DNA from: a virus | Length of the DNA: 64,000 nucleotides | Strand: one strand, 5' to 3' | Virus record (IMG/VR): IMGVR_UViG_3300042544_001941 | Position numbers and translations under genes: made by a program | The notes under the pieces: model-generated | What the model saw: the letters and a program-made list of their open reading frames with translations, nothing else | What the model was told of the DNA's origin: nothing | Database searches by the model: none | Shown here: piece by piece, positions 10,614 to 60,901 of the stretch | Numbering within the stretch: the first letter of the stretch is position 1 | Layout of the letters: each line of letters opens with the position of its first letter

Positions 10614-12338
10614 ATGGGAGCATTATTAGAATCAGGTATGGTTGGTAACATCGGTCTTAAGCACCTTCGTGTTATCAAAGAAGATACCATCAAAAAATGG
10701 GATGACTTAGGCTTTTTAGAAGGTCTTGGAGGTCACCAAAAAGATAACATCGCGCAATTATATGAAAACCAAGCGTCTTATTTAATCAACGAAGCAGCAG
10801 TATCTGATGCTTCTGGTTCTTTCGAGACTGTGGTATTCCCTATCATTCGTCGTGTATTCTCTAAATTATTAGCTAACGACATCGTGTCTGTACAAGCTAT
10901 GAACTTACCAATCGGTAAATTATTCTACTTCATTCCTAAAATTCAAGGAAGAGATGGTGTTAACCACCGTCAACCTTATGGAATGCCAAGTAACAATGAC
11001 GCAGCAACTGCAGGTTACACAGATGCTAAAAACCTTTACGATAGCTTCTATGAGGCTGGTGATGGTAACTCTCCTTCTGAAGGTTTGTTCGATTACTCTA
11101 AAGGTTCATACTCTGCTGTTACTTTAAATGGTGCAGCGGTAGTTGCTTTCTCTAATGGTACTGTTGCTGATGTTACAAGAGCATCTTTAACTGGTACTAC
11201 TCAAACTTCATTAGTAGTTAAATTCTCAGGTTTCACTAAGGACGGTCAAGGTAAGTTAATCGGACCTAACGGTTCAGTAATGGATACTGAAGAGTTCTTA
11301 GCAGGAGCTGAAGTTTTCGTAAGTGGAGCTTCTAAAAACTTCAACATCGTAACTCAGAAATACGGTAAAGGTATTATCGAGTACGGTTCTAAATCAACTT
11401 CAGCATTCCCTGGAGGTAGATTCCAAGATATTTGTGACGAAGAAGGTGTTATCTATATCAACGTAGATTTACAAAACTACAATGGTGTAACAACTGGTTT
11501 CACAGCTTCTCAATTATCTAACACATTCCAAGCTTCTGATGTAACTTTAGGTTTTAGAGTTTACTCTGACTTAGAATTCGAAGATGCAATTGGTGAAGTT
11601 TCTTTCGATTTAGAATCAGTAACTGTTTCTGTAACTGAAAGAAAATTAAGAGCTAGCTGGTCTCCTGAATTAGCTCAAGACGTAAGTGCATTCCACAACA
11701 TCGATGCAGAAGCTGAGTTAACAGCATTGTTATCTGAGCAAATCGCAGCAGAAGTTGACCGTGAAATCTTACGTGACCTTCGTAAAGGTGCTGCTTGGAC
11801 AACTAAGTGGGACTACAACGAATGGAGATATGGTAATGGTGGTTCAGCTTTCGCAGGTTACACTCAAAAAGACTGGAACCAAACGTTAATCACTAAGATT
11901 AACCAATTATCAGCTCAAATCCATAAGTCTACTTTGAGAGGTGGTGCTAACTGGATTGTTGTTTCTTCAGAAGTATCTGCAGTATTCGACGATTTAGAAT
12001 ATTTCCACGTATCAAACGCTCATCCTGAGCAAGACCAATACAATATGGGTATTGAGAAAGTAGGTACATTAGCAGGTCGTTACCAAGTATACCGTGACCC
12101 TTACTTCCCAGCAAACAAAATTTTGATTGGACACAAAGGTAAGTCATTGTTAGACGCTGGTTACATCTACGCACCATATGTTCCTTTACAATTAACTCCA
12201 ACAATGTATAATCCGTTCAATATGACCCCAATCAAGGGTATTATGACAAGATACGCGAAGAAAATGGTTAACAACCGTTACTACGCTACTATCACAGTTA
12301 GAGGATTACAATCATTTAGCTTGGATACCTTAAGATAA
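10614..12338 (+). CDS. gp23: Major capsid protein (T4 gp23-like)
   Basis: VSVQAMNLPIG, RKLRASWSPELAQD...HNIDAEAEL, DAGYIYAPYVPL, GIMTRY. Confidence 0.97.
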   Translation: MGALLESGMVGNIGLKHLRVIKEDTIKKWDDLGFLEGLGGHQKDNIAQLYENQASYLINEAAVSDASGSFETVVFPIIRRVFSKLLANDIVSVQAMNLPIGKLFYFIPKIQGRDGVNHRQPYGMPSNNDAATAGYTDAKNLYDSFYEAGDGNSPSEGLFDYSKGSYSAVTLNGAAVVAFSNGTVADVTRASLTGTTQTSLVVKFSGFTKDGQGKLIGPNGSVMDTEEFLAGAEVFVSGASKNFNIVTQKYGKGIIEYGSKSTSAFPGGRFQDICDEEGVIYINVDLQNYNGVTTGFTASQLSNTFQASDVTLGFRVYSDLEFEDAIGEVSFDLESVTVSVTERKLRASWSPELAQDVSAFHNIDAEAELTALLSEQIAAEVDREILRDLRKGAAWTTKWDYNEWRYGNGGSAFAGYTQKDWNQTLITKINQLSAQIHKSTLRGGANWIVVSSEVSAVFDDLEYFHVSNAHPEQDQYNMGIEKVGTLAGRYQVYRDPYFPANKILIGHKGKSLLDAGYIYAPYVPLQLTPTMYNPFNMTPIKGIMTRYAKKMVNNRYYATITVRGLQSFSLDTLR

Positions 12339-12356
12339 TAACATCTTAATATAGTA

Positions 12357-12390
12357 AAAGACCCTCGAGAAATCGGGGGTTTTTTATTTT
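12357..12390 (+). terminator. Intrinsic terminator after the capsid gene
   Basis: AAAGACCCTCGA-GAAA-TCGGGGGTTTTT hairpin with T-tract. Confidence 0.85.
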
Positions 12391-12420
12391 TGGTATATTC
12401 CAGAATATTTCTTATATTTG
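12389..12420 (+). promoter_or_regulatory. Bacteroidota sigma-A-type promoter TTTG-N20-TATATTTG
   Basis: Exact match to the -33 TTTG / -7 TAnnTTTG consensus; 4 nt before ATG 12425. Confidence 0.7.
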
Positions 12421-12424
12421 TCCT

Positions 12425-12739
12425 ATGTCTGACGTTGATTATAGTAAATTAAGATTAGATGTCCTTGAAAAGATGGTGTATTCAAGAGGTATTGAATGCA
12501 AAATGAAAAAGGACGAAATTGTTAAAGTGTTAAAACTTGACGATGAGGGGAAATATGAACCACCTATGAACAATACAGTTTATGAAAAAACTGATGGTGG
12601 GTTTAATGTAGGTATTGATTTGAGAAATCATTCAGATTTAGTTCAGATTGGGAAATTCGTAGAAAAAAAAGAAGCAAAGTCACTCAATAGGTATTCTGAT
12701 AATAGAGTATGGTATTGGTCAAAGGGTAAGTTAATATGA
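12425..12739 (+). CDS. Small protein with N-terminal SAP/HeH (Rho-N-like) motif
   Basis: DYSKLRLDVLEKMVYSRGIECKMKKDEIVKVL resembles a helix-extension-helix pattern. Confidence 0.55.
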   Translation: MSDVDYSKLRLDVLEKMVYSRGIECKMKKDEIVKVLKLDDEGKYEPPMNNTVYEKTDGGFNVGIDLRNHSDLVQIGKFVEKKEAKSLNRYSDNRVWYWSKGKLI

Positions 12740-15146: not shown

Positions 15147-15154
15147 AATTTTTA

Positions 15155-16528: not shown

Positions 16529-16550
16529 CTTTTTATTTAATAAATATCAA

Positions 16551-18068
16551 TTAGTTTATTCTAATTGAATCATTTACCAAATCTCTTTCCATAGTTTGAA
16601 TCAAGTCCTTCAAAATCGACATTCTTTCGGTATCCATATGACCAGGTTCGGCCCAATTATGAACGTGACCAACTAAAAATTCGTACATTTTTTTTAATAT
16701 CTTAATCAAAACTTCACCTCTAACCGTTGAATATGTTGATGGTTCAATTTCAATTAGATAATCTTCTTGGGTATACTCGTAATTGTTAATTTTGGTAAAA
16801 TCCACACTCTTTTTTGGTCCCTTATTCGTACTTGACGATACAAAATACACCTTATCTGCAACTAAATTTGCAAAAGTCTGCTCACCTTTATTGTCCCTTG
16901 CTTTTAGAACTTTTATTTTCTTTTCACTATTTTTGGTCGGTGGGGTTGTAAATTGTTTTGAAAAAATTAAACCTCCTCCCGTACCAAGTCCCCCAACACC
17001 CTTAACTTGTACACCATTCACAAATTTAGTTCGGTTAGTAATTTCTGTTGTGTTTGTAGTTACTCTTGTTTTTAGTTCTCCCGCAGGTCTAAAATAGAAT
17101 GGATGAATATCATCTTTAGGATATGACGTATTGAATTTTGATAATCCTTCATTCGATAATATGTATAATATCTCCCTTAATTCAATATACGCATCCTGAA
17201 TAGATGTTACTGAAACTGTTATTGTAGAACCCGTTGTTGTTCCGTCATTGTAAATTTTAACTTTTTTAGGGTCGGTTATGTCTACATAGGTTGATTCGTT
17301 AAAATAGTTAGAATCAAAAACAGGACCAAATGTGTCCATTATTTTGTAGACATTGATTTTTACTTCTGTTGGGGTCGTTAAATTATCTATAGTATATTCA
17401 ATTAGATGATTTATTTTGGCAACAGGTATTTTTGTTATCTTTATTTTCTCATCCTTAACTTCCATAGTTCTCGGAAATTTCTTTAGTCCGAGTCTTGACA
17501 TCTTTTCAGATAAAAGTGGTACTTCAGATAAACGTTGTCTAAATTTTGGATTTGGTACATCTTTGTTAATAAGTTTACCACCTCTTAACATCATACCATT
17601 TTTTGTGAAAACTATATCAGAACCATAATTTCCATTTAATGCGGTATCATCCAAGGTAGCCATAGTACCAAATGATTTTCTATCAATATAGTTTCCTGCT
17701 TTATCTTTTAAATCAGGTAATCCCTCTACTATCACACCACCATAGGTCGTATCTTTATGTTGTGTTGTAAAGGTTTGATTTTCGAAATCGTGAGGGGATG
17801 TATAAGGTCCTGAGATATACTCAACGTTTTGTGAATCCTTATCAGTATCGTATTGAATTAATTTGACAGATTGTCCAAATTGTGGAATAATATTAATGTG
17901 CGCCGGTAGGAATGGAATAGAAATAAATGGGTCTTTATCGTCCCATTCGGTGTATTTAATACCACCCGCAACCTCACTCAAATACTGACCATATGGTCTA
18001 TATCTAATTCTACCAATTCCCTTTGGGTCGATATTTGAAACACAGACCCCGACGTCAATTATTTTCAT
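16551..18068 (-). CDS. Baseplate central spike / gp5-like protein
   Basis: N-terminal OB-fold signature DPKGIGRIRYR..IP..GQSV; C-terminal TVRGE..L......L..HVH tip motif. Confidence 0.7.
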   Translation of the reverse strand: MKIIDVGVCVSNIDPKGIGRIRYRPYGQYLSEVAGGIKYTEWDDKDPFISIPFLPAHINIIPQFGQSVKLIQYDTDKDSQNVEYISGPYTSPHDFENQTFTTQHKDTTYGGVIVEGLPDLKDKAGNYIDRKSFGTMATLDDTALNGNYGSDIVFTKNGMMLRGGKLINKDVPNPKFRQRLSEVPLLSEKMSRLGLKKFPRTMEVKDEKIKITKIPVAKINHLIEYTIDNLTTPTEVKINVYKIMDTFGPVFDSNYFNESTYVDITDPKKVKIYNDGTTTGSTITVSVTSIQDAYIELREILYILSNEGLSKFNTSYPKDDIHPFYFRPAGELKTRVTTNTTEITNRTKFVNGVQVKGVGGLGTGGGLIFSKQFTTPPTKNSEKKIKVLKARDNKGEQTFANLVADKVYFVSSSTNKGPKKSVDFTKINNYEYTQEDYLIEIEPSTYSTVRGEVLIKILKKMYEFLVGHVHNWAEPGHMDTERMSILKDLIQTMERDLVNDSIRIN

Positions 18069-18069
18069 A

Positions 18070-18267: not shown

Positions 18268-18270
18268 ATT

Positions 18271-20163
18271 TTAAAATAATTTACCGGCACCCACAACCAT
18301 AGGTGTAATAACAGCGCCCGCAACACCCGCAGGTATTATCGATGGTTTAAGTCCGATTTTTACAAATGAATCTTCATCCATAGTTTTACTATAACCGTCA
18401 ATGGTTGCTTTAAGTGCTTTGTTCCATTTATTTTCTCTATCGTAAAGTGGACCTGTTACAATTCCACTCCTTGTCATATTTTCAATTGTCGACATATAAG
18501 CTTTATCAGCACTAAATCCTGGTAACTTATCTGCAATTGCCAATAAAATACCCGGTATAGGTATTTTTAATCTTGCATTTATCGCCCCATTTATTGTTGA
18601 TAATATAGCATTAAAAATTGCCTCACAACTATCTAATTTTGTCGTTAGTAATTTTAATAAAAGTGTTATCAATGATAGTAGTATTGCTTTCCATCTTTTT
18701 AATTTTTTTAATAGTATAGTCTTAGCTACTTTTTTAATAAAATCTAACAAGTCCTTTTTAACAAATTTCCAAAAAGCCTGTATGAACTTCCAAAATATTC
18801 TTTTAACAACATCAAAAAATAATTTAGCCATTCTTACTAAAATTTCGGCAGCACTTGCCACTGCGCCTTTAAATAATTTATAAAGTACTACTATTGGTAA
18901 GAAAAGTTTTGGTGATAGAATTGCTTGTATTAATGCTTTAGGTAAATTTAAAATAAATAAACCTGTAATATTAACCTGTAAATTGTCTAATCCAACAGAA
19001 CCTCCTGATTGTTGGTGACTTTCCGACGCTACTTTATTGAGTGTGTTATCAATTATCGAATCGATATTTTTACCTGGTTTTTTAGTAAAGTGTACAAAAT
19101 CCTCCAAATGATTTTTATTAACAGGAGACTCAAAATTACCACAATCGGCATATCTTAAAACTCTTCTTAATCTTGCATTTTCATCATCGATATCAATACC
19201 TTCTACATCTTCAAAATTAAAGTAGGTTTCTACATCATCTTCTTCGTTGTTTGTAGTGTCAACAGCATTTTCATTTAATGGACTTGCGTTTTTTTGTGGT
19301 TTACCACAGATAGCAAATAATTTTTGACAAATTCTGTTTAAATTATTCATACCTACTGTAAATGATTGAGGAGCGTCGTCCATTCCTTGAACAGTCATCA
19401 TCATTGCTTGTTTTACCACATTGGTAATGTCAGGATATTCAATTGCGGAATAATAATCAGTTAAAAAATTTTCAACAGTTGTTGCACCTGTGACTCCTTG
19501 TAATCCCGAAATATTATATACTTGGGATGAATCGTTCCACTGCATAGTAAAAATAGTCTTATAGTCCTTGTTGTTGAAAAAATATGCAGATGAAGAATCG
19601 AAATTGCTATACAATTCCTTATTCATTTTTATAAATCCTGTATCTTCACTTGTTTCGTACATTATTTGACCTGTATTACTATCAGGTGCAACTTTTAACA
19701 TACTTAAAAAATCAATTTCTTTAGGTGATATATCAACATTATTCGCCGGCATCAAACTATTACTTCCACAAATCCCTCCACCACTAAAAAATGATTTTTT
19801 CACAGAATCCATAACAATTTGTTTAGATTCTCTAAGGGTTATGTTCGAGGATTCTTTTGCGTAATATTTTAATTTGTTTTTTACAACCGGCTTTTGATTT
19901 GGGTTAATACTATTTGTATCGTTTGAACCCATAAATCCCTCAAAGGTCTTTATTAATTCACCAAATATGTCTTTTTTTTGGGTTTGTTTTGCTTTTCTTT
20001 TGTCCTTAAAATCGTCTATCTTTCTTTTAATGGACCCGTCAATGTCAGGCATTTGGTCTTTAACCAAATCAAACACGTCATCAACGTATGTTGGTTTTTC
20101 GTCTGCTAATTTTTTAATAGCATCTAATTTTGCTCTAATAAGTGCTCTTTGTGGATTTGCCAT
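18271..20163 (-). CDS. Hypothetical virion protein with hydrophobic/amphipathic C-terminal helices
   Basis: 630 aa; LFLPIVVLYKLF, WKAILLSLITLLLKLL, IPGILLAIA. Confidence 0.7.
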   Translation of the reverse strand: MANPQRALIRAKLDAIKKLADEKPTYVDDVFDLVKDQMPDIDGSIKRKIDDFKDKRKAKQTQKKDIFGELIKTFEGFMGSNDTNSINPNQKPVVKNKLKYYAKESSNITLRESKQIVMDSVKKSFFSGGGICGSNSLMPANNVDISPKEIDFLSMLKVAPDSNTGQIMYETSEDTGFIKMNKELYSNFDSSSAYFFNNKDYKTIFTMQWNDSSQVYNISGLQGVTGATTVENFLTDYYSAIEYPDITNVVKQAMMMTVQGMDDAPQSFTVGMNNLNRICQKLFAICGKPQKNASPLNENAVDTTNNEEDDVETYFNFEDVEGIDIDDENARLRRVLRYADCGNFESPVNKNHLEDFVHFTKKPGKNIDSIIDNTLNKVASESHQQSGGSVGLDNLQVNITGLFILNLPKALIQAILSPKLFLPIVVLYKLFKGAVASAAEILVRMAKLFFDVVKRIFWKFIQAFWKFVKKDLLDFIKKVAKTILLKKLKRWKAILLSLITLLLKLLTTKLDSCEAIFNAILSTINGAINARLKIPIPGILLAIADKLPGFSADKAYMSTIENMTRSGIVTGPLYDRENKWNKALKATIDGYSKTMDEDSFVKIGLKPSIIPAGVAGAVITPMVVGAGKLF

Positions 20164-20540: not shown

Positions 20541-20557
20541 ATACATAAATAGATATT

Positions 20558-21259
20558 TTATGAATTTAGAAACCCAAAAATAACACCATCGTACATTTTT
20601 CTATATTTCTTAAGAGCAATCCTGATTTCCTTAGTGTTTAATGAAGTCATTTCCCTTAAGGATAATAATATTAGATTTTTGTTGAATTTGTTACCTTCCC
20701 CAACTTGGAAGATTTTTTCAAAACTGCTAAAAATTTCAAGTAACGCATAACCAAGTTTTTGTTCGTTTTCATTTAAATCTTCAGATTCAATGAACTCTTC
20801 CAATTGGATGGTCATTTTGATTATAACATCTTTATAATCTAACGTGGTTTCGTCTAAAATATATGAGAACTCAGGATTGTTTTCCATATCCGATGATATG
20901 TCATCATAGGATATCGTTCTATTATTGTCTTTACTATCTTTTTGGATTGCACCCATAAGATAGTTCTTACAGATTGTACCGAAATAGGAGTAAGCTTTAT
21001 GGTTTTTTGTGTGGTCAAACTTACTGATTTTAGTCATTAAAAATGACATAGTATCAGTATGTAAGTCAGAAAATTCCATATCTTTTCTGTAAAGTTTATA
21101 ACGTCGAATAATTGATTCGACCATTATAATTAGGGGTTCACGTAAATATTCGTTGAATATCTTATTCTTTTCCGCATCATCAGTACTTTCAAGGTACATA
21201 ACTACCGCCTTCTCTTGTTCCTCCCCAAAATATATTTTTTGGGTCCTTTTTCTTGGCAT
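20558..21259 (-). CDS. Late-transcription sigma factor (T4 gp55-like)
   Basis: Sigma region-2-like KISKFDHTKNHKAYSYFGTICKNYL. Confidence 0.75.
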   Translation of the reverse strand: MPRKRTQKIYFGEEQEKAVVMYLESTDDAEKNKIFNEYLREPLIIMVESIIRRYKLYRKDMEFSDLHTDTMSFLMTKISKFDHTKNHKAYSYFGTICKNYLMGAIQKDSKDNNRTISYDDISSDMENNPEFSYILDETTLDYKDVIIKMTIQLEEFIESEDLNENEQKLGYALLEIFSSFEKIFQVGEGNKFNKNLILLSLREMTSLNTKEIRIALKKYRKMYDGVIFGFLNS

Positions 21260-22053
21260 TAATCTGCTACATAATTTATATCACGTTTATTTTTGAAGAA
21301 AAATTCTTTTTTTGCTGTTTCTAACCAAAACTTTACTTCATTTTCGTTTAGTCTTCCGTCTTCACCATTTTTGTATGTCCAAAATAAAGAGTCTTCTCTA
21401 AAATTAACGTGTTGGTATCCTACTCTTGGGATTACCATAACTTTAACACCATTATGTGTTAATCTTAGTAAGAATTCATATGTAAAAGTTAATTTAATAT
21501 TGTCTTTAAATAAACCATTTTCTTTAACTACTTCCGTTTTAAACAATCCACCACTAGTTTGATAATTTTGGAATTCTAATAGAACTTCGTTATCAACGAA
21601 CCCTTGGTTATCAGTAAAACCGTAAGCCCAAGCGGATTCGTTGGTGAAAGATATAAATGAACCTTCAACATTAATGTCCTTTACAATTGGTAAAAACACA
21701 TCAACAGTTGGGTTGTTTTTAATGTATTCATTTACTGATGTTAACCAAATAGGTTTAAACTCATCATCAATTTCTAAAATACTAAACCACTCAGTATCAC
21801 AAGATGAAATACCAAGATTTATTTGTGTACAGAAGTCAGTTTCTTTACTTGTATTTGTGACAAGTTCAACTTCTAACTTTTGACCAAATTCAAAATTGTC
21901 AAGTTTATTTTTTACATCTAATGGACAAATGATTTTTAGTTTAATGTCATTGTGGAAATCCTCAATAGACTCTAATGCATTTGATAACATTATTGATTCT
22001 TCTTCACCAATTTTATGAATTGGTAATAGTATGGTTATATTTTTACTCTTCAT
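21259..22053 (-). CDS. Glycosyltransferase family 2 (GT-A)
   Basis: ITILLPIH N-terminus, INLGI...WFSILEIDD (DxD-like), YEFLLRL. Confidence 0.8.
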   Translation of the reverse strand: MKSKNITILLPIHKIGEEESIMLSNALESIEDFHNDIKLKIICPLDVKNKLDNFEFGQKLEVELVTNTSKETDFCTQINLGISSCDTEWFSILEIDDEFKPIWLTSVNEYIKNNPTVDVFLPIVKDINVEGSFISFTNESAWAYGFTDNQGFVDNEVLLEFQNYQTSGGLFKTEVVKENGLFKDNIKLTFTYEFLLRLTHNGVKVMVIPRVGYQHVNFREDSLFWTYKNGEDGRLNENEVKFWLETAKKEFFFKNKRDINYVAD

Positions 22054-23101
22054 TGTTTTCTGCTTTAACTTTTTCGATTGCCTTTTTAATAGAATCTTCT
22101 CTGATACTGATTAGAGAATTGAATATTGACAATGTATTATTATTGTGGGTTTCTTTAGTATATGGTACCACAGTCTCTCTCATCTTTTCTTTTACTTCAC
22201 TTGTAAGTTCAACACCTTCTAACCAAGCTAAAATAAATGTACCTAAAATCTCAACTAATTTATTTACATCATAAGTCCATAAACCATTTTCAGTTAACCA
22301 ATCAGGTTCAGTGTTAGGAATTTTACCAACAACAGGGACACCACATTTCATAGATTCTAATGGGAAAGTTCCGAATGTTGATTCGTCATCAACCCAAAGT
22401 GATACCATACATTCTTTTAGATTATCGGCAAACTCATCGTAAGACATTTGCACCATATCTCTAAATGTTATCCATCTTAATTGTGGGTACTTAATGTAAA
22501 ATTCAGAAATTAATTTTCTATGAATCAATCTGTCTCTACAACTAATTGCCACGTATGGTTTAATTGGTTTATCTGTAGGTTGGAAATTATCCCCGATAAA
22601 CGGTGGAATTAAATGAACCAAACTTTCAGGGAAATAATCTAAAATATATTTCTTTGAAGATTCACTGGTTGTGATACATTTATCAAAACCATAATCACTC
22701 CATCTACTACCAATTGGTAAAGTTTCAAAGATGTAATCTTTTTGTTGTACTAACATAACCTTAACAGATTTAATGTTAGACAATTGAGGTAATACGTTTG
22801 AATAATATTCAGGTACAACGATAACATCTTCAACTTTGATTTCAACTTTATCTTCTTTAATTGAAACGACTTCGAGACTATTATATTTGTCACCTAACCA
22901 ACCGTCAACACCTGTGTACGTTTTATCCTCAACTAAAATCTTAACGAGTCTTCCGCTTTCTTTTAGTGCTAACGCCATATCGTAGATATTTTTTACCGCA
23001 GCTCTGGCGTTATTTTTGGTATCATATGTTAAAAAATATATGACGTTTTCTTTATTACTAATCCTACTTAGTGAGGATTCTAACTTTTCAATGTTACTCA
23101 T
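22043..23101 (-). CDS. Glycosyltransferase (GT-B, GT4-like)
   Basis: DVIVVPE; STFGTFPLESMKCGVPVVG, matching the (E)xFGxxxxEAMxxGxPVV motif. Confidence 0.8.
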   Translation of the reverse strand: MSNIEKLESSLSRISNKENVIYFLTYDTKNNARAAVKNIYDMALALKESGRLVKILVEDKTYTGVDGWLGDKYNSLEVVSIKEDKVEIKVEDVIVVPEYYSNVLPQLSNIKSVKVMLVQQKDYIFETLPIGSRWSDYGFDKCITTSESSKKYILDYFPESLVHLIPPFIGDNFQPTDKPIKPYVAISCRDRLIHRKLISEFYIKYPQLRWITFRDMVQMSYDEFADNLKECMVSLWVDDESTFGTFPLESMKCGVPVVGKIPNTEPDWLTENGLWTYDVNKLVEILGTFILAWLEGVELTSEVKEKMRETVVPYTKETHNNNTLSIFNSLISIREDSIKKAIEKVKAENNEE

Positions 23102-25925: not shown

Positions 25926-27155
25926 TTATTTTTTAATTATTGATTTGAAAAACTCTGCTCTATTTTTATTAACTGTGTTTAAAGAATATTTGTCCTTAAC
26001 AGTTTCATAAAGTTTATTTCCTAAGTCCTCAATCATATTAGGATTCTCAACTAATTTTTTCATATGTTGAGCCCATTGTTTATGATTCTTTCTTGGGGAC
26101 ACTAATAACGCATTTCCTTTGGTATTGAATGTTCCTTGGTCAACCGCACTTATCAAGTCAATAGTGTATGGGTCACAATCACTAGCAATGATTGCCTTTT
26201 TGTGAAACCCTGCTTCAATAACTTTTAATTGGGATTTGTTACCATTAAATAAACTTTCAACTACAGGAGCTAAAGATACGTCAAACAAATTATAATTGGT
26301 TGCGTATTTTGAAATTTCTTTTGTCCATCTTCTTCTATATGGTTCGTTTACATCATCGTAATCGTCTTCCTTAAATGATAATAGATAGTTCTTATATTCT
26401 TCAGACAATATCTTATAATCATCTGTGAACATTTTTTCATATTGATACCAAACGGTTTCCATTGGTTTGATAGGTCTTTGTTTCACTTCACCTGTTTGTT
26501 GGTTAACCTCATTTACATTACCTCTTAAATCAAACCCACATAGTACAAACTGAGTCTTATCTTTGTATGAAGATAATGTACTTGAGATTCCACTTTTAAT
26601 TAATTCTAAGTCGTAAAGGTGTGAAGAACCTCCTAACCAACCAAATCTAATTTTATCTGATTTTTCAGGACTAGATTTAAATTGTGATTCGTTTTCATCA
26701 ATTGCGTTTGGAAATACTAACACGTTCTTAACACCCAATCTTTTGATTATTGTATCTCTGAATATTGGTGTGGTGGTAGTTACATAATCCGCCGCTCTTA
26801 GTAATTGAACTTTCTTTTTGTGGGTTTCACTTTTGATAATTTGTCGATGCATCGGGTGTCTATGGTCAGGTTCCCAATAATCATCGATGTCACATACAAC
26901 AATAATTCCTTTCTTTTTTAACCAATCAATTCTTTCGATGTTTTTTTCAAAGGGTACTTTATTGTGGATAAAGCTATGTAAAACAACAACATCGTAATTG
27001 TCAAATTCCGAATCATTGTCTTCAACATTGTATTTTATATCGATGTGAAAATCATCCCCATAGTTTTCTTGTAAGTGGGTATAGGGACCCATAATTCTAA
27101 ATTTACCAACGCCGTATTGGTCTGATGGAACAGCTAAAATTCTAATTTTTGACAT
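25926..27155 (-). CDS. Glycosyltransferase (GT-B, GT4-like)
   Basis: VCDIDDYW, ADYVTTTT, FPNAID, FGWLGGSSH, DVSLAP...FNGNKSQLKVIEAG; start placed at ATG 27155. Confidence 0.85.
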   Translation of the reverse strand: MSKIRILAVPSDQYGVGKFRIMGPYTHLQENYGDDFHIDIKYNVEDNDSEFDNYDVVVLHSFIHNKVPFEKNIERIDWLKKKGIIVVCDIDDYWEPDHRHPMHRQIIKSETHKKKVQLLRAADYVTTTTPIFRDTIIKRLGVKNVLVFPNAIDENESQFKSSPEKSDKIRFGWLGGSSHLYDLELIKSGISSTLSSYKDKTQFVLCGFDLRGNVNEVNQQTGEVKQRPIKPMETVWYQYEKMFTDDYKILSEEYKNYLLSFKEDDYDDVNEPYRRRWTKEISKYATNYNLFDVSLAPVVESLFNGNKSQLKVIEAGFHKKAIIASDCDPYTIDLISAVDQGTFNTKGNALLVSPRKNHKQWAQHMKKLVENPNMIEDLGNKLYETVKDKYSLNTVNKNRAEFFKSIIKK

Positions 27156-27189
27156 AATAAGTAATACCACTTAATGTGTGGATATATCA

Positions 27190-30690: not shown

Positions 30691-30725
30691 ATATAAATAT
30701 CAAATGTTATGAAAGATATTTATAT
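30691..30725. promoter_or_regulatory. Back-to-back divergent late motifs (GATATTTATAT on both strands)
   Basis: ATATAAATATC at 30691-30701 and GATATTTATAT at 30715-30725, at the strand switch. Confidence 0.7.
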
Positions 30726-30729
30726 TAGT

Positions 30730-38382: not shown

Positions 38383-38420
38383 ATTTGATATATTCCTATA
38401 AATAGTTTATTTTTGGTAAT

Positions 38421-47081: not shown

Positions 47082-47831
47082 ATGGAAGAATTTAAAGTTG
47101 ACCCCACGATTGCGTACGACGTTGTTGAGTTACCTAGTAGAGGTATTCACTATTCAACAAAGAAAAAATCATTAAGAATTGCATATCTAACTGCGGCTGA
47201 TGAAAATATTTTAGCATCACCAAATTTAGTACAATCTAATGGTGTTGTTAATGAACTACTAAAAAGAAAAGTCTTAGATAAAGACATCTCAACTGATGAT
47301 TTAGTTGAAGAAGACAGACAAGCAATTCTTTTGTTTTTAAGAAACACAGCGTTTGGTTCTGACTATAAGATGGTAGTAACTGACCCTAAAACAGGAGAAA
47401 GATTTAGTCACATTGCTGATTTATCACAAGTTAAACTAAGAGACTTTAAATTAGAGGAAGATAGTAATGGTGAATTTAAGTTTTATTTAGAAAAAAGTAA
47501 AACAGATATTACATTTAAATTCTTAACCCAAAAACAACAAGAGGATATTGATAAAATTAAAGATAGTTGGAATGGTTTAGGAGTTGCACCGATTATAACA
47601 AGACAATTAGAAATGATGATTAAGTCTGTTGGTGGAATTAAAGACCAATTACAAATTAGAAATTTTATTGAGAGAATGCCAATCAAAGATTCTCAAGATT
47701 TCCGTAAATACATTTTAGAAAATAAACCAAGTTTAGATTTAGTACAACATATTACAACCCCGTCAGGAGAGACAGTCGAAGTTGAAATCGGCTTCGGGGT
47801 GGAGTTTTTTCGCCCTTTCTACGGATTATAA
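47082..47831 (+). CDS. Baseplate hub assembly / tail assembly chaperone (gp26-like)
   Basis: VELPSRG..Y, YLTAADENIL, DRQAILLFLRNTAFG, C-terminal EFFRP; lies between tube and tape measure. Confidence 0.75.
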   Translation: MEEFKVDPTIAYDVVELPSRGIHYSTKKKSLRIAYLTAADENILASPNLVQSNGVVNELLKRKVLDKDISTDDLVEEDRQAILLFLRNTAFGSDYKMVVTDPKTGERFSHIADLSQVKLRDFKLEEDSNGEFKFYLEKSKTDITFKFLTQKQQEDIDKIKDSWNGLGVAPIITRQLEMMIKSVGGIKDQLQIRNFIERMPIKDSQDFRKYILENKPSLDLVQHITTPSGETVEVEIGFGVEFFRPFYGL

Positions 47832-49883: not shown

Positions 49884-49924
49884 ATTTTTAATATAACACC
49901 TATTTATAGGTAAAGAAAAACATA

Positions 49925-52900
49925 ATGCCAAGCTACGTAGATTTTGATTCAACTAAAAGATTTAGGGATTACATATTAGGTAAGAATTTATCTGTTCCAA
50001 ATGGTCCACAAACCTTTAATGCTGGTTCATATACGATTCAGAATCTAAGTGACTCACCTGTTCCTAATTTAGGGGATGTTGAAGCGGAAAGAACAATCAG
50101 TTTAGATAACACTCAAAATTTAAATATTTTCAAACCTTTAGAGTATTTCGTTAGAGAAACTTTAGATAATATTCCAAGAAGAGCTAACTTGGCTTTATAC
50201 CCATATTTTAGAGGAGGTCAAGATTATAACATTATTGGAATAATGTCAACAAGTAACTACGATACTGAATCTGAGTTATTTAAGTTTGCAGCAAATAATA
50301 TTAAAAACAATCCTAATGGTCCTGTATTTGCGAGAATACAACAAAATTTATACGCGGCAACTGTTGGTAGAGTTAGATTAATTGATGCGTTACAAGGTAA
50401 CACAACAACTGCAATTAATATTGTTACAGGTAGAGAACCATTAGTTGAATTCAATAATAAAATAACAGTTGCAAAAACCTTACCCGGTAAAGCAATTGAT
50501 TTTTTACAAACAGTTTCAGGTGTTGAATTTCCTTGGAGCGAGGTTCCTGGTGATTATTTAACAAACCCAAGAAATCCTGTAAATGTTAGACCTGTTGCAC
50601 AAAACGAAGCTCAGGCTATACTTCAGGATGTTACAGGTGCTATAGGTTCTTTAATTGGTATACAAAGAAGACCAAAGGCATCAAGAAAACCTTCAGACTT
50701 ATTCATTGAATATATGGGTGAAGGTCAAAGACAAAGATTATATGATTTATTATCATATTCAACATACGCACCTAACTATACAACAACCGCAAGGTCCCAA
50801 CAATCATCAAAAATATTTTCTTTTGTTGATAAAATAGCTTCAGGTGTTAAAAATCTTTTAGGTGTTGAAGCACCAAAAGGTAGAGCATACATTGGAGATG
50901 ACAGAGGTAACGATGTCAAATTTGCAATGAATGATTTTAATGATAGACCCGTAAGAAGTAATTTTTATTTGTCATCAATGTTTGACCCAATCCAAGCGGG
51001 GTTATTTCAAAGAAAAAGAAATATTACTGAAGGTGGACCGATTGGTGGTAAACTGACTTGGATTAGTCAAAAATCAACTAATAAGATTGGTGAACACAAC
51101 AAAGAATTTGCGTCAGAACAATCACAATACGCGGGAACATTATCAACAAACTTTAGATTTAGAGATGATTCAATATTAGGTGTAACACAAGATTTACTTA
51201 ACACATTACCATTTAATGGTATAGAACAAAGGTCACACGTTGCAAATGTAATTGACCAAACAAGTAGAGTCTTTAGAGATGGTAATACCGTTATGTCGAG
51301 AGGTTCTAATGTTAAGTACGTTAATATGTACTCAGGAGAAGAAAGTGGTGTTGAATATTGTAGAGTATGGACCAAAGATAGGTCACACTTGAATTATTCT
51401 GACACGATGAAAAGAACAGGTCTTATTAGAAAGTACGATTCATCTGTAATGTCAACACCTTACAATTTAAACATATATCCAAATTCGGATGGTAAATCAT
51501 CATTTGATGGGTCAACAAATATTGTAAAAGGTAATGGAGGATTCTACGCTAAGAAATATATGTTCTCAATTGAGAACTTAGCTTGGAAAACATCTAACAT
51601 ACCAGGTTTTACATATAACGATTTACCTTATTGTGAAAGAGGTAACAATGGTGGACGTGTTATGTGGTTCCCACCTTACGATTTAAAGGTGAGTGAACAA
51701 AACGCAGCTAGATGGGAGGAAAATACTTTCCTTGGTAGACCCGAACCAATTTTTACTTATCAAAATACAACAAGAAATGGTAGTGTCTCTTTTAAAATAG
51801 TAGTCGACCACCCAAGTATTTTGAACTTATTAGTTAGAGAACATTTTAAAGGTATGTCAGATGAAGAGGCTGACAATTATATTAATGCATTTTTTGCGGG
51901 ATGTGAAGATTTAGATTTTTATTCTTTAATTAGAAAATATACAACATTAGACCAAAGTGATATCGAAAACATTCAAAGGTATCTTTCATTTTCAAATGAC
52001 CCAAAAATTATTGAAAAAGTAAGAACAGTAATTGACCCTGTTAAAGATTTAAATGTTCCTGATGTTCCAGGTTCTACACCAACTAAAAGTGATAGTTCAG
52101 AAAATAATGATGCGGGCGGTCCCGTAAATAAAAAGTTTATTCTTTATTTTAAAAATGACTATCCTAAAAAAGATTCGGGAGAATTACAAGGTAAAAGATT
52201 TAAAGAAGAATATGAACTTTATCAAAGAAGTGCGTATTTGGAAGAATTAGAACAGGGATTATTAACCGGTGATGATGCATTATTTAACCCTAGTCACGCT
52301 TGGGGACCTAAAAGTCAAAACGATTATAAAATTCTTTATAATGAAGAAACCAAAGTAAGACCGACTGATGCTAAGATTGCTGAATTAACAGGTAAAACCG
52401 TTAGTGAAATAAACAAAGCGTTTGATACATTAACATCAACATATAGTGGATACACAAAAACATTAAGTGATATTAAGGGTTTATTGAAAGATAAAAAAAT
52501 TCAAGAAATCAAATTATCACTTCAATCGACAACATCATTTCTTGCCGATAACACATACAATTTAAAACTTTCATATAGAAGAAGTTCAAGTATCATAAAA
52601 GACATACTTGAAAATATAAAAGGTGAAGGTTCAAAATATGATACATCAAGTGTAAAATGGGGAAAAACACCAAACGAAAAAGATAAAGAAATAGTAGATG
52701 AAATTCCTGCAATTAAATTCAGAGATTTGGGTTATGATTATGATGGTGAATTAAAATTTAATTTCGTTTCAAATAAAGGTGAACAATTTAAAACGACAAT
52801 TTCAGGTGATAAAAACATTGATTGTCACAATCAAGAAATTAAAAGTAACAAAGACTTACAAAGAACAGCACCTGTTACATTTTATTGTAGAGAAACAACT

Positions 52901-54739
52901 GTAGGTATTTCATATAAAACAAAACCTGCAGATAATCCTGCACCTGTACCTACCCCACCACCTGTACCGACTCCACCACCTAATGTACCACCGGTAAATG
53001 TTATTCCTGTTCAAGAACAAGGTAAGAGAGAAAAACCACCACTTGACGAATTAAAGAGAATTATAATGAAGACTTTGGGTGAGTGTTATTACTTCAAACA
53101 ATTAGAAGAAACATCACCTGTTGCGTTTAGTTCATTAAAAGAGAAGTTAAAGTACTTCCATCCGGCGTTTCACTCAACAACACCTGAAGGATTGAATACA
53201 CGTTTAACTTTCTTACAACAATGTATTAGACCTGGTGACACAATACCAATTAAAGGTATTAATGATGAGACGGACTTACCGGCTAGAAATACTACGTTTG
53301 GACCACCACCAATTTGTATTATGAGAGTTGGAGATTTTTATCACTCTAAAGTTATTATTAGAGATGTAAACATTCAATTTGATAATTCACCTTGGGACTT
53401 AAACCCTGAAGGTATTGGTATACAACCGATGATTGCAGATGTAACAATGCAAGTTAGTTTTATCGGTGGTCACGGAATGGAAAGACCTGTTGAAAGATTA
53501 CAGAATGCGTTATCATCAAACTTCTATGCAAATACCGAAGTATATGATTATAGAGCAACTGCGACTGAAGACAGAACTAAATTTAATAAACAAGAACTTG
53601 AAAAATTGTCAGGACTTAAAACCCCTGTACCAACCAACTTAATTCCAACACCTAATCCTGAAAGTCCAAATAACGTTTCAAGAGGTCAATATCTTGGTGA
53701 TTTAACAGGTAAGGTATTGAATTATGACAAGTTGATAAAAAATGTTTATGGTGGAACAACAAATTATTACACCTCATATATTCAAGCTATAAGTAATATC
53801 ACAAAAAAATACGGAAGTAAAATCGCTAGTACATTTTTCTCACCTGTTTATAGGGAGGTAAAAGATTTTACAATTAAAAAGGTTGACAATAGTAATAATG
53901 TTACTGATTTAAATGTACAATTATTTGGACAACAAAAAAGTGTGAACAAATATACGAGTTATATATTAACAGCATTTAGAGTTAAAATGAGTAATAAATT
54001 ATCAGCAACAAATATTACTACAATGTTTGGTTTAAATGACGTTTTAAATAAACCATTAACAGATTATACTGAAACTTATTTAAAACCAATAGTTGCGGAT
54101 GAATTAACTAAAATATTAAAAGAGGCCGCCGACGATAAAACGGCGATTGAACTTGAAACTAAAAGAAATGATTTAATTGCGAATTTAGACAAACTTAATT
54201 TTGTTATAGATACAACCCACGACGGTAAAGTCTCAGATAGTAATGTTTTTTCAGGAGCAACATTTGATTACGCGTCTTCAACAGGATTCACTAAAAATAA
54301 AATCTACAGTAGTTATTCAAATTGTGTAGAATTTATTGAGAAAAATGAACCAAAAATGTTAGTAGATATTGATACTACATTAACATTTGATAAAGAAATG
54401 ACAATATCCGACGATAATTTTAAAGAGTTTGTTAGTTTATTACTTTATAGTAAAAAACAAGTTCTTTTAGATACACTAACCAAAAAAGATTCCGTAAATT
54501 TTAATGATGGGGTAATTAAGACTATTGATAAAAAATTAACCAAATTTTTTGTAGAACCAAAAGCGATTAACGTTAAAGTTGGAAAATATCCTGAACCTAA
54601 AAACACTAACAAAGTTGAATTTCAAGTTGTAAATGAGGACTTTGTTTTGTCAGGAGAAACTAAAACCAACTTAATAAAACTACATTCTGCAGATGTTAGG
54701 TTAGGAGATAAATTAAACTACTATAAAAAGAAAAAATGA
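49925..54739 (+). CDS. Giant baseplate/tail-tube initiator protein with an inserted OmpA-like domain
   Basis: WFPPYDL..SE...W....FLGRPEPIFTYQNTTR, PPICIMRVGDFY...PWDLNPEG; YNLKLSYRRSSSI. Confidence 0.7.
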   Translation: MPSYVDFDSTKRFRDYILGKNLSVPNGPQTFNAGSYTIQNLSDSPVPNLGDVEAERTISLDNTQNLNIFKPLEYFVRETLDNIPRRANLALYPYFRGGQDYNIIGIMSTSNYDTESELFKFAANNIKNNPNGPVFARIQQNLYAATVGRVRLIDALQGNTTTAINIVTGREPLVEFNNKITVAKTLPGKAIDFLQTVSGVEFPWSEVPGDYLTNPRNPVNVRPVAQNEAQAILQDVTGAIGSLIGIQRRPKASRKPSDLFIEYMGEGQRQRLYDLLSYSTYAPNYTTTARSQQSSKIFSFVDKIASGVKNLLGVEAPKGRAYIGDDRGNDVKFAMNDFNDRPVRSNFYLSSMFDPIQAGLFQRKRNITEGGPIGGKLTWISQKSTNKIGEHNKEFASEQSQYAGTLSTNFRFRDDSILGVTQDLLNTLPFNGIEQRSHVANVIDQTSRVFRDGNTVMSRGSNVKYVNMYSGEESGVEYCRVWTKDRSHLNYSDTMKRTGLIRKYDSSVMSTPYNLNIYPNSDGKSSFDGSTNIVKGNGGFYAKKYMFSIENLAWKTSNIPGFTYNDLPYCERGNNGGRVMWFPPYDLKVSEQNAARWEENTFLGRPEPIFTYQNTTRNGSVSFKIVVDHPSILNLLVREHFKGMSDEEADNYINAFFAGCEDLDFYSLIRKYTTLDQSDIENIQRYLSFSNDPKIIEKVRTVIDPVKDLNVPDVPGSTPTKSDSSENNDAGGPVNKKFILYFKNDYPKKDSGELQGKRFKEEYELYQRSAYLEELEQGLLTGDDALFNPSHAWGPKSQNDYKILYNEETKVRPTDAKIAELTGKTVSEINKAFDTLTSTYSGYTKTLSDIKGLLKDKKIQEIKLSLQSTTSFLADNTYNLKLSYRRSSSIIKDILENIKGEGSKYDTSSVKWGKTPNEKDKEIVDEIPAIKFRDLGYDYDGELKFNFVSNKGEQFKTTISGDKNIDCHNQEIKSNKDLQRTAPVTFYCRETTVGISYKTKPADNPAPVPTPPPVPTPPPNVPPVNVIPVQEQGKREKPPLDELKRIIMKTLGECYYFKQLEETSPVAFSSLKEKLKYFHPAFHSTTPEGLNTRLTFLQQCIRPGDTIPIKGINDETDLPARNTTFGPPPICIMRVGDFYHSKVIIRDVNIQFDNSPWDLNPEGIGIQPMIADVTMQVSFIGGHGMERPVERLQNALSSNFYANTEVYDYRATATEDRTKFNKQELEKLSGLKTPVPTNLIPTPNPESPNNVSRGQYLGDLTGKVLNYDKLIKNVYGGTTNYYTSYIQAISNITKKYGSKIASTFFSPVYREVKDFTIKKVDNSNNVTDLNVQLFGQQKSVNKYTSYILTAFRVKMSNKLSATNITTMFGLNDVLNKPLTDYTETYLKPIVADELTKILKEAADDKTAIELETKRNDLIANLDKLNFVIDTTHDGKVSDSNVFSGATFDYASSTGFTKNKIYSSYSNCVEFIEKNEPKMLVDIDTTLTFDKEMTISDDNFKEFVSLLLYSKKQVLLDTLTKKDSVNFNDGVIKTIDKKLTKFFVEPKAINVKVGKYPEPKNTNKVEFQVVNEDFVLSGETKTNLIKLHSADVRLGDKLNYYKKKK

Positions 54740-55059
54740 GTAATCAATATTTTGATAGATACCAATATTTTATAGATGACGGTAGTTTTAAAATAATGCC
54801 AGGCATTGAAATACCAATTAAGTCTACTGACAAGTATTTTCAATATAAAAAAGGTAAAGATAGACTTGATAAAGCGTCACAGGAATATTACGGAACACCA
54901 TATTTTGGTTGGTTAATTATGTTAGCTAACCCAATGGCTGGTAGTGTTGAATTTGAAATTCAAGATAATTTTGTTATTAGAGTTCCATTTCCATTAGTAA
55001 CGACTTTACAAGACTATAAAAGAGGAGTAGAATTGTATAAGTTATATTATGGCGAGTAA
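54736..55059 (+). CDS. Baseplate wedge protein (gp53/LysM-like)
   Basis: DRLDKASQEYYGTPYFGWLIMLANP...IRVP. Confidence 0.75.
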   Translation: MSNQYFDRYQYFIDDGSFKIMPGIEIPIKSTDKYFQYKKGKDRLDKASQEYYGTPYFGWLIMLANPMAGSVEFEIQDNFVIRVPFPLVTTLQDYKRGVELYKLYYGE

Positions 55060-58000
55060 AAAAGGAAACACAAACGATATATTAGTTAAGGTCGACCAAA
55101 ACAATTTAATGTACATCGACCCTAATAGCGTTGTGTCCGATGGTCAAGTCTTATCAAGAGAAAGTAAACCAGAAGAACTCGTAATGTATGTAAATCTTGA
55201 GGCGGACCTAATTCCAAGAACAACTTTGGTAACAGGTAATGAAGCAAGTACATTAACATCAATTGCAAAGGGTACTTTCAATTTAATGAGAAATGCGGAA
55301 GGAAGAGACTTTGATTCAAAGTGGACCGACGCATATACTGAATATGACCAAAAAACAAAAAAAGATAAGGACGGAAATAAAATACCAACAGGTGACTTTT
55401 ATCAATTTGATAGTACCGCTCAAAGTTTTGGTATTGAAAGTATTAACGTACAAATACAGGGTGTCAACGTAATACCACAAGTCAATATTAAATTTGTGGA
55501 TGTTAGAGGTAAGACACTTTTTGAGTCTCCTGAAAATTCACCATATAAAGCATTTTTCCATTTACCTTGGCCGATTTTTTACTTAACCATAAAAGGTTAT
55601 TATGGAAAGGCGATAAGATACAGACTTCACTTAGTTAAGTTCAATTCACGATTCAACTCAACAAATGGTAACTTTGAAATAGAAACGACGTTTGTTGGTT
55701 CAACATATGCATATCTAAATGATATTCCGTTGGATGGTATAATGGAAGCACCATATATGTACCCAATTGAAAGTATTAGAGATGGTAAGTTTAATGAGAA
55801 AACAAAAAAATATGATAAGGTAGTTAGAAAAACAAGTAGAGGCTTAACAGTTTTAAAATCCGTTTATGCTGAGTATAGACAAAAAGGACTACTACCAAAA
55901 ACCTTCCCCGATAAAACATTAAGGGAAGTTATTAAAATTGCACAAAGATTAGAAAGTATTTTGGAAGAAGAAATATTTTCAAAAACTGCAGACCCAAAAG
56001 TATTAAATGGTATTCGTGAGTTTGATAACGTTTTAAAAAACTTTGAAAAGGCTCTATTATCTTGGAAATCAAGAAACTTAAGCGCTGAATTTTTTAGAAA
56101 AGAACCAAATGAAGAAATAGAATGGAACGTATTATTAGAGAAAAGTAAACCTGCAACTTCATTAGCGATGCTTACGGGGTCAACACCCGGTACGTTAGAG
56201 TTATTAATCAAAACTAACGTACAAGCTATGGACAATAACCAAGCGTTTGGTAAAAATAGAGATGTAAAATTATTAAAAGATAAAACTATTAGTACAAGAA
56301 CAATCTCAGGAAATGCGTTATTGAATATTAAAAACTTTTACAAGATAGATTCCAAAATTGGTGTTGACATAAATGGAATGTTACAGACATTGTATACAAT
56401 TCAGAAAGACTACATTGAAGAAAGAAACAAATTAGAACAACTAATCGAGAAAAAAATGAACGATATCATCAAAAGAAGAGATATCGGAATTGGATTTGAA
56501 CCAACGATTCGTAATGTCGTGGGTTTAATTCTTGCAAGTGCTGACACATATATTAGATTATTAAAAGATACACATTATAAAGCGTTTCAAGTTTCAGAAC
56601 AAAGAAAAGATATTCTTAACTCAGTATCAACAGATAGTGTTGGTGAATCAATATATCCTTGGCCTGAAGTTAAAAAACCTGCAACGGGTAAAAAACAAAA
56701 TGTTTTAGTTTACCCCGGTTCTTTTGAAATGTCAAAAAAACTACAGAGTTATGATAAGAAATTGTGGCCTGAAGTTGATTTTGTCGAAAACTATCACGCA
56801 GTATCCACCAAAAAAGTTGAGAGTAATGACTCAAACGAAAATGGTCCTGATTTAATTGACTATATAACAAACAACGATTCTGAATCATTACAAAGAAGAG
56901 ATATCAGTATGTTAACACATTTAAACAATGCGATTCCATACGAAGATAAATCAATTGCTTCTATACTATATGAAATATGGGAAAGAGCAACATATATTAC
57001 AACTATAGATTCATTTAGTAACAATACAATACAAGAATTGGCATTGTTAGAATTTGATAATCTTAAAAATAGAATTGCTGAAGATTTTGATATTATTGAA
57101 ATTTTAAAAACATCGGTTAAAAATCCTGAAGATTTAAAGAAATATATGTTAGGATTTTCGGCCTATGAAAGATATCCATATTACGAAGACCAACTCCCAA
57201 CTATACCGTATATTAGGGAGTCTTTGGAAGCGGATTTTAAAGTTGAAAAATACGTACCTAAAAATAAATCTTTGGATAACAATAGATATTATCCAAACTT
57301 AGCACAAAACTTAATTAACTATGTTGGTGAGGAGTATAGAGTAAACATATACCCTTTTAATTCAACTGAATATAGTTACAGTTTATTATCTTCAGGATTT
57401 ACTAAAAACCAAATACACCTTAAAGGTATGGTTAGGTTAAATACTGTTGAAGATTTTATTTCTTCATCAATTGAACCTGAAATGTGGGTATGGTCTGACC
57501 CTGTGGAATATGTTGTTGATGTATCAGGAAGTACATCAAGAAACACTAAAACAGGTAGAAACTTATTTAATAATTATATCTTTTTTGATACAGTAGATTA
57601 TCAAAACGCACCTACCACGGATTATAGGATGATGATTAATACTCCGTATTTTCATAAACAACTATACAATGATTATCAAAATAGAACATCAAAAGGAAGA
57701 TATGCTGGTTCTGCTTACTTACTCTTAAATCAATTAAACTTTAAAGACTTAGCACATCCATTAAAAGATAATTTAAACATTGGATTACAAGCGGTTATAA
57801 ACACAAATGATGAAGGAGTTTTAATGTCTTCAATGTTTAGAGAGATTGGAGCTACTCATTATGTACCATATCATTTAATATTAAAGTGGGGTGCGTTATA
57901 TCATAGATATAAAAAACACATATTAGAAGGTGTGGATATTTTATCAGGTATAACTGAACCAATTGACACTAATTTGTTTTACGATTTAAATCAAAACAGA

Positions 58001-60901: not shown

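Follow-up and report, generated by a model that had tools for sequence, protein, structure and literature searches.

The window analysed here is a 64,000-nucleotide stretch of the IMG/VR virus record IMGVR_UViG_3300042544_001941; it has a G+C content of 32% and is part of a distant T4-like myovirus. We examined the tetrapeptide [ST]GxT in its proteins, which the original prediction, made from the letters of the sequence, had found frequent in the structural proteins and had read as a sequon for phage-encoded virion glycosylation. The structural genes of the window that carry the motif are as follows.

10614..12338, plus strand: major capsid protein, T4 gp23-like (phrog_138, 2.7e-66); three motifs, TGTT193, SGFT205 and TGFT294
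16551..18068, minus strand: 505-aa late protein (ORF16551); one motif
18271..20163, minus strand: 630-aa late protein (ORF18271); one motif
30709..32091, plus strand: late protein (ORF30709) with a ConA-like lectin lead only (ESM Atlas, Laminin_G_3); five motifs versus 0.42 expected
32110..33903, plus strand: Ser/Thr/Gly-rich fibre-like protein with no Pfam or PHROG match; four motifs versus 1.67 expected
43302..46142, plus strand: tail sheath (phrog_23, 6.9e-64); seven motifs, five of them in residues 99-303 (outer insertion domains)
47082..47831, plus strand: baseplate hub-like protein (phrog_150); one motif
49925..54739, plus strand: 1604-aa baseplate-region protein; five motifs versus 1.15 expected
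55049..60901, plus strand: 1950-aa baseplate/hub-region protein; ten motifs versus 0.93 expected

An order-specific tetrapeptide in the exterior virion proteins

The 51 open reading frames (ORFs) of the window were translated; 14 of them (8,993 aa) were classed as structural and the remainder came to 11,283 aa. The 14 structural ORFs contained 37 [ST]GxT motifs, compared with 8.0±3.0 (maximum 17) in whole-protein shuffles. The hand count of about 37 in the original prediction was reproduced exactly, both for the capsid, sheath, ORF30709, fibre, 1604-aa and 1950-aa proteins and for the single motifs that it had placed in a spike, a neck protein and ORF18271. It had expected 5-6 by composition, which proved slightly low, and the enrichment itself stood. 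The excess also survived the shuffles proposed as its check, composition-preserving and local alike, the expectation being 9.3 with 30-aa blocks and 10.7 with 12-aa blocks. In the non-structural ORFs, four motifs were present versus about 4.6 expected. These lay in the DNA polymerase, in ORF 2186-3427, in ORF 37264-38382 and in the Walker-A TGKT of a RecA/UvsX-like ORF. The polymerase motif is a conserved TGNT at residue 666, and the polymerase family had 54 motifs versus 12.3 expected over 37 homologues; this excess is a site conserved by descent and is distinct from the surface phenomenon.

The excess depended on the order of the residues. Among 8000 patterns of the form a-b-x-c, TGxT ranked first in the window (23 versus 4.2 expected, p=1.5e-10), and SGxT came third. 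In the structural ORFs, neither the rearrangements of T, G and T (TxGT, GTxT, TTxG and others) nor the near variants [ST]GxS, [ST]AxT and [ST]NxT departed from expectation. Position x was unconstrained, with F, I, L, Y, E and K among the residues seen. In the extended logo, [LIVY] precedes [ST]-G-x-T; the residue after the final T is K in the window, and F or Y in a relative. Local composition as the cause was ruled out by the two block shuffles and the permutation controls. Hidden repeats or shared domains were discarded likewise, as no BLAST-level similarity was found among the motif regions, the sole exception being TGITG[ES]T, shared by ORF30709 and the sheath (E=0.21). No Pfam domain was found in the large window proteins.

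In the structural genes, frame 0 contained 23 occurrences of the nucleotide pattern ACNGGNNNNACN, and each of the five other frames contained 0-3. This confinement to frame 0 indicates that the motif signal lies at the protein level. A signal at the DNA level, such as a methylase or binding site or a codon effect, was rejected on this ground and because the preference for ACA/ACG before GGN is common to all Thr-Gly dipeptides. The codon-pair bias of the window is strong: in the structural genes, 62 of the 70 Thr residues that precede Gly use ACA or ACG, ACT and ACC being nearly absent, and Ser before Gly in the coding regions likewise avoids TCT and TCC.

The other genes of the window to which a function or position was assigned are listed below.

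3470-5227: terminase
5283-7118: T4-type portal
8606-9289: prohead protease
34370-37267: family-B DNA polymerase
39471-41222: helicase
46491-46979: tail tube
47991-49883: protein at the tape-measure position

A gp32-like single-stranded DNA-binding protein and a UvsX/RecA-like protein are also encoded. Just 5' of the terminase gene, a 303-aa ORF (1285-2196) has EF-hand/dockerin-like calcium-binding matches (EF-hand_7, 7.7e-8; Dockerin_1, 1.2e-6).

Spread through the clade, site placement and turnover

The nearest cultured phages are remote, namely Flavobacterium phage immuto (capsid 40% identity), Rhodothermus phage RM378 and Microcystis phage Mel-JY01. An aquatic member of the Bacteroidota is the probable host. 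Metagenomes contain a very large clade of close relatives, with contigs up to 336 kb and 120 sheath relatives at 68% identity or higher. The relative G002 (287 kb, 86% complete) is syntenic with the window except for 12736-13899 and 32110-33903, which have no orthologue there and are probably variable cargo or a variable fibre inside a conserved late region.

We determined the motif content of orthologous families across the clade. The mean was 8.6 motifs versus 1.46 expected in 120 sheath homologues, 5.55 versus 1.20 in the 75 sheaths of a second subclade and 3.0 versus 0.49 in 120 capsids; 150 sheath representatives at 31-69% identity were enriched 1.4-4.2x. By family, the enrichment was 9.4x for ORF30709 (173 versus 18.5), 7.5x for ORF18271, 5.1x for the sheath and 5x for the 1950-aa protein, whose orthologues carry eight motifs in G002 and six in the relative G006. 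It was lower for ORF16551 (2.8x) and the 1604-aa protein (2.3x). The hub-like protein (1.3x), the tube (0 versus 3.7), the protein at the tape-measure position (1.0x) and the glycosyltransferases (GTs; 0 versus 16) were not enriched. Over the clade, outer families had 952 motifs versus 192 expected, inner virion families 38 versus 44 and non-virion families 81 versus 85. In a matrix of all a-G-x-c combinations from 857 clade ORFs, only TGxT, SGxT and SGxS stood out, and TGxS was at 0.8. The whole of G002 had 200 motifs versus 63.7 expected. Most of the excess came from fibre-like giants, among them a 1402-aa ORF with 35 motifs and a 2329-aa ORF with 20, and bins lacking structural genes were at about 1.0x. 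In the G002 proteins beyond the synteny of the window, SGxT (81 versus 20.7) and TGxT (67 versus 22.6) ranked second and fourth of the 8000 patterns. A G002 fibre segment had no match among GenBank phages or in the PDB.

The structural block of T4 (75-125 kb) had 11 motifs versus 11.6 expected, with none in gp18, and the enrichment was 1.33x in RM378, 1.23x in Mel-JY01 and 1.64x in immuto. In IMG/VR, at least 119 diverse contigs encode the decapeptide LPLSGGTMTG, which we take to be a common fibre module, versus about 0.4 expected by chance. Eighty of these loci (L118-L197) span 30-69% G+C, and no Pfam family was detected in the module-bearing ORFs tested. The ORFs that hold the module were enriched in [ST]GxT only 1.75x, with permuted patterns equal or higher. 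Therefore, the module cannot account for the 5-9x excess in the capsid, sheath and baseplate proteins of the clade. A general trait of T4-like structural proteins or of fibres was excluded, given that T4, RM378 and Mel-JY01 lack the enrichment and generic fibres reach only 1.75x. We conclude that the enrichment is a real and strong effect at the protein level, that it depends on residue order and is specific to the clade, and that it is confined to exterior virion proteins.

The positions of the sites were examined in AlphaFold2 models. The sheath model had a predicted local distance difference test (pLDDT) score of 90 and matched the T4 gp18 chains. In the sheath alignment, 56 of the 70 motif-bearing columns lay within residues 99-303. 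On the architecture of T4 gp18 with its protruding domains, this segment of the model is probably a lineage-specific insertion at the topological point of those domains. The DSSP assignments over the 70 columns were mixed: among them, 13 columns were in loops and 13 in strands, others were at loop/strand edges, one was in a two-residue hairpin turn and 4 were in helices. Given the mixed secondary structure and the free position x, no single fold element explains the motif, and the single ordinary beta-turn that the original prediction had named as its undoing was not supported by the sheath model. The surface loops that it had foreseen were found in part: the sites map to the outer insertion domains, but to strands, a hairpin turn and helices as well as to loops. 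The excess is neither chance, nor an effect of composition, nor an ordinary turn.

The window capsid aligned to T4 gp23 over residues 68-116 and 326-548 only, and its motifs at 193, 205 and 294 all lie within a lineage-specific insertion (residues about 117-325). Among the 120 capsids, all motif columns but one lay in residues 133-308, in the segment 117-325 that does not align to gp23. The capsid model was poor (pLDDT 44) and usable for residues 165-320 only.

The sites turned over. At 72% identity, ORF30709 kept three of its five sites, which is about the background rate, and new sites appeared. Distant full-length sheaths (31-48% identity) had none of the sites of the window, yet most carried 5-9 motifs elsewhere. 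The full-length sheath P0141 had no motif, indicating that the sheath fold does not need it; no IMG/VR contig matched P0141 at useful identity. Distinct motif columns numbered 49, 118 and 16 in the sheath clade, the diverse sheaths and the capsids, compared with 22-37, 60-96 and 4-12 for permutations of the same composition. For columns held by at least five sequences, the numbers were 30, 26 and 11 compared with 5-16, 2-8 and 1-5. Such repeated gain and retention at free positions would fit a selected linear motif, unlike a fixed structural element.

Glycosyltransferases in the window and its relatives

Three putative GT genes were found in the window.

21259..22053, minus strand: GT2-family glycosyltransferase, a weak match (PF00535, 24.8 bits against a cut-off of 23.3); overlaps the start of a late sigma-like gene
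22043..23101, minus strand: GT-B (GT1/GT4-like) glycosyltransferase (PDB 8xsg, 'putative glycosyltransferase', 5.3e-5; ESM Atlas lead Glycos_transf_1)
25926..27170, minus strand: GT4-like glycosyltransferase, a hallmark of the clade (phrog_7162, 3.4e-42)

These correspond to the GT2 and the two GT4-like enzymes of the original prediction, all weakly supported; its GT10-like ORF was not found in the window. The three enzymes have diverged too far for an acceptor to be assigned to them. The GT2 and GT-B genes are coupled to the gp55-like sigma gene. The GT2 orthologues are syntenic in G002 (65% identity) and G006 (40%), and the cluster of three is syntenic in G002 and the distant G006 down to 39-52% identity. 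The GT-B protein had no homologue among GenBank phages. The GT4-like gene was found at no fewer than 549 IMG/VR loci; it is present in the relatives G002, G003, G005 and G006 and absent from immuto, RM378, Mel-JY01 and T4, the four phages that also lack the motif excess. These four phages count as a single phylogenetic contrast.

The glycan-related families of the relatives comprise PF11397, PF25342, PF00852, PF00535, Glf and epimerases. PF11397, the family of GT60, was strongly matched in G002 (8.4e-72) and G006 (1.5e-65) and was also present in G007; there was no match in 14 of 14 control genomes and no PF11397 gene in the window. In G002, at 98.6-101.6 kb (L095:376-1605, L094:18635-19735), the GT60 gene is near a UDP-galactopyranose mutase gene (Glf, 2.5e-79) on the same strand, and the genome also carries two epimerase/dehydratase genes and 3-4 GT2 genes. 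In G007, GT60 sits between two motif-rich fibre ORFs. In G006, glycan genes at 61.1-68.2 kb (L109:1126-8207) form a run that separates the ORF30709-like gene from the fibre genes. Its members encode the GT60-like protein, a PLOD-type GT (3e-16), a GT10 fucosyltransferase-like protein (4e-11), a rhamnosyl O-methyltransferase/CmcI-like protein and an HtrL_YibB+GT2 protein. The protein-directed families, PF11397 and the PLOD-type GT, were seen only in the relatives G002, G006 and G007.

A candidate glycosylation sequon and its alternatives

Judged from the alignments, [ST]GxT is most likely a short linear motif selected for number, not position, on the exterior domains of a clade of ~330-kb T4-like phages. 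We tentatively propose that phi-[ST]-G-x-T (phi = L/I/V/Y) may be the acceptor or recognition sequon of phage-encoded protein O-glycosylation. A soluble phage GT would add the first sugar to the Thr of the motif in the cytoplasm, the strictly Thr +3 position being the better acceptor candidate, and further phage GTs would lengthen the glycan, giving the virion exterior a coat. What we infer is that residues are modified at all, by which enzyme and on which acceptor. It is rather more doubtful that the whole proposal holds, in which an undescribed sequon on capsid, sheath, baseplate and fibre would be read by phage GTs to give a shifting glycan coat in an abundant aquatic clade. On this view, the positions of the sites would evolve as those of the glycan shields of enveloped animal viruses do. 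The original prediction knew of no description of the motif, and our literature search likewise turned up no paper dealing with a TGxT/SGxT sequon or with phage GT60 enzymes. The protein-type GTs of the relatives lend the sequon added plausibility.

Several known systems resemble the one proposed. In mycobacteriophage virion glycosylation, as in our proposal, the decoration of the particle surface is ascribed to cytoplasmic GTs that the phage itself encodes, and the GT genes are near structural or late genes. The mycobacteriophage GTs that Freeman et al. are said to have described in 2023 modify capsid and tail-tube subunits; experiments reportedly demonstrated the modification and placed it in C-terminal extensions rather than at a dispersed tetrapeptide. 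Those phages are siphoviruses of Actinobacteria, whereas the sites here are predicted and are scattered through the insertion domains of many proteins. Mycobacteriophage virion glycosylation is mentioned in PMC11256854. In adhesin glycosylation, HMW1C/NGT acts on N-x-S/T and the BAHT heptosyltransferases act on AIDA-I and TibA. This system shares with our proposal a soluble cytoplasmic GT, dozens of short sequons, very large beta-rich surface proteins and action before assembly or export; it differs in its enzyme families (GT41, BAHT), acceptor residue and sequon. No homologue of these adhesin-modifying enzymes turned up here, no search aimed at them having been made. The GT60 polypeptide alpha-GlcNAc transferases (PF11397) include Gnt1 of Dictyostelium and Toxoplasma, which acts on a hydroxyproline of Skp1, and a Trypanosoma cruzi enzyme that forms mucin Thr-GlcNAc. 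They are protein-directed and strongly matched in G002, G006 and G007, and the Thr preference of the trypanosome enzyme fits the strict +3 Thr. However, their acceptors are hydroxyproline or Thr-rich mucin repeats rather than [ST]GxT, the window lacks PF11397, and the GT60-bearing Xanthomonas phage XacN1 lacks the excess. The chlorovirus sequon is (A/G)-N-T-x-T, and that system also has a virus-encoded cytoplasmic machinery, a non-canonical short T-x-T sequon and sites on the major capsid surface. It differs in being N-linked to Asn, in belonging to eukaryotic viruses and in being experimentally established. The capsids of chloroviruses and giant viruses are glycosylated by virus-encoded GTs at atypical sequons (PMC9614988, PMC5408694). 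Finally, the LPLSGGTMTG fibre modules contain [ST]GxT and occur in the fibre-like giants of the clade, but their wide spread and lack of order-specificity set them apart.

A number of observations weigh against the sequon. Within the clade, the motif and the window GTs are always found together, but this co-occurrence counts as one event at the level of the clade and is confounded by phylogeny. Only four GenBank phages carry GT60. One of them, XacN1 (385 kb), has a GT60 of 47% identity and 79 [ST]GxT versus 75.3 expected (1.05x); its whole genome (L238-L257) is instead rich in Pro/Thr (P/T) patterns, with 284 PTxT versus 39 expected and an excess of TPxP and TPxV. The P/T excess suggests mucin-like O-glycosylated linkers in its lineage. 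G002 likewise carries long TPTPT/TPTATST linkers in at least eight large structural ORFs (mucin-like TPTPT/TPTATSTPT linkers at 37173-40622, 250768-252852, 255532-257868 and 257897-264883; L091-L103). From XacN1 and G002 together, GT60 therefore tracks mucin-like linkers and not [ST]GxT. Escherichia phage tuntematon (Phapecoctavirus), which has a GT4-like homologue of 27% identity, had 26 motifs versus 22.1 expected (1.17x). With XacN1 at 1.05x and tuntematon at 1.17x, no co-variation of motif and enzyme over independent lineages was detected. Non-target proteins did not significantly avoid the motif: 10 of 23 non-outer families were motif-free compared with 3-11 for permuted patterns; an apparent 0.3x depletion had vanished in this family-level comparison. 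Many sites are embedded in the regular secondary structure of well-folded domains, and the hydrophobic residue at -1 points to partial burial. The capsid of G002, which shares 80% identity with that of the window, is motif-free, and some motif instances in the fibres of relatives fall within conserved modules (LPLSGGT.TG) that are widespread in unrelated phages.

In tuntematon, the GT4-like homologue is one of four consecutive annotated GT genes in the replication module (L338:4705-7849), which adjoin primase/helicase, Dam-like methyltransferase and DNA polymerase genes.

The sequon passes the sequence-level tests proposed with it, yet without independent co-variation of the enzyme, and is unproven. 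Of what the original prediction had put forward, the enrichment in outer proteins stands, the reading as a sequon is supported in part, and the co-occurrence with GTs that it had proposed to test across related genomes was not borne out over independent lineages; no relative was found with the motif and without the GTs, but the XacN1 and tuntematon contrasts showed no enrichment. A structural idiom and glycosylation of P/T linkers both remain serious rivals.

The structural idiom, possible but in our estimate somewhat doubtful, would be a favourable local element (a strand start or end, tight turn or bulge) that the clade reuses as its fast-evolving, beta-rich outer domains and fibre modules are remodelled, without recognition by an enzyme and with the GTs acting elsewhere. 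The hydrophobic residue at -1 and the frequent aromatic residue or Lys at +4 are consistent with it, as are loop-to-strand transitions, which the 70 sheath columns show at about 1.8x the expected frequency. The capsid sites keep a G-F core, and the residues on either side of it vary between T, S and A. The fibres of the relatives hold recurring modules (YLPLSGGTVTG, TISGxTFYGDGSNLT, VTGFTY..., LTGLTINGDL.VSGNT), and the spread of LPLSGGTMTG and the mildly high content of generic fibres point the same way. However, the secondary-structure contexts are heterogeneous and x is unconstrained, and some homologous full-length sheaths have 0-3 motifs (P0141, P0123), so the fold is independent of the motif. 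The structural proteins of T4, including gp18, show no excess, and the 5-9x order-specific excess is far above the 1.2-1.75x of other phages. Beta-branched substitutes were not enriched either ([ST]GxV about 1.0).

It is unlikely, though arguable, that virion glycosylation is real with P/T-rich mucin-like linkers as its acceptors and [ST]GxT unrelated to the GTs. XacN1, with its huge P/T-repeat excess, and the linkers of G002, where PT patterns are at or near the top of the scans beside SGxT and TGxT, speak for it, and so do the GT60 acceptors, Thr in trypanosome mucins and hydroxyproline in Skp1. Nevertheless, it leaves the motif unexplained, and the window structural proteins are almost devoid of such linkers, the only ones being in 27839-28753 and at the gp32-like C-terminus. 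Two acceptor classes are also compatible because several different GTs are present.

We consider it improbable that the window GTs modify DNA, as does the T4 alpha-glucosyltransferase encoded beside gene 55, or a host polysaccharide, with the motif unconnected. In T4, a few genes separate a-gt from gene 55, which encodes the sigma factor, two window GTs abut the sigma-like gene, and a dUTPase/dCTP-deaminase-like gene lies in the same block of the window. In addition, phage Glf and GT sets have been implicated in DNA glycosylation in Pootjesviridae (PMC13326640). The window GT-B proteins, however, have no similarity to the T4 enzyme. A dCMP hydroxymethylase or 5hoC synthase is recognised as a ThyA homologue with N177D or D169N (PMC13326640). 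The only ThyA homologue in G002, a relative and not the window genome, has the canonical D169 and N177 (...RSVDV...PFNIAS...) and is therefore neither enzyme, by which the hydroxymethylcytosine (hmC)/5hoC pathway was dismissed. The lack of a Tet/JBP match, in a search whose control was uninformative, also counts against DNA modification. Least probable is a docking element for a non-enzymatic partner (decoration or cement protein, chaperone or environmental ligand) or the target of a different modification: the motif is linear, restricted to the outer surface and maintained in density, as for the sequon, but no candidate partner was identified and four specified residues within folded domains are a weak binding determinant.

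If it is a sequon, [ST]GxT would represent the first protein glycosylation code of any tailed phage to be defined by sequence, one that could be read directly from metagenomes, where thousands of related contigs exist. Phages would then be able to evolve a glycan coat of fluid site positions over head and tail, with a bearing on host recognition, on adsorption to particles or mucus, on how phages withstand proteases and grazers, and on how their surfaces can be engineered. Should the motif turn out to be structural, it is still unusual for an order-specific tetrapeptide to be in 5-9x excess in the outer domains of one clade only, and the motif could serve as a marker of exterior virion proteins in genomes that are hard to annotate.

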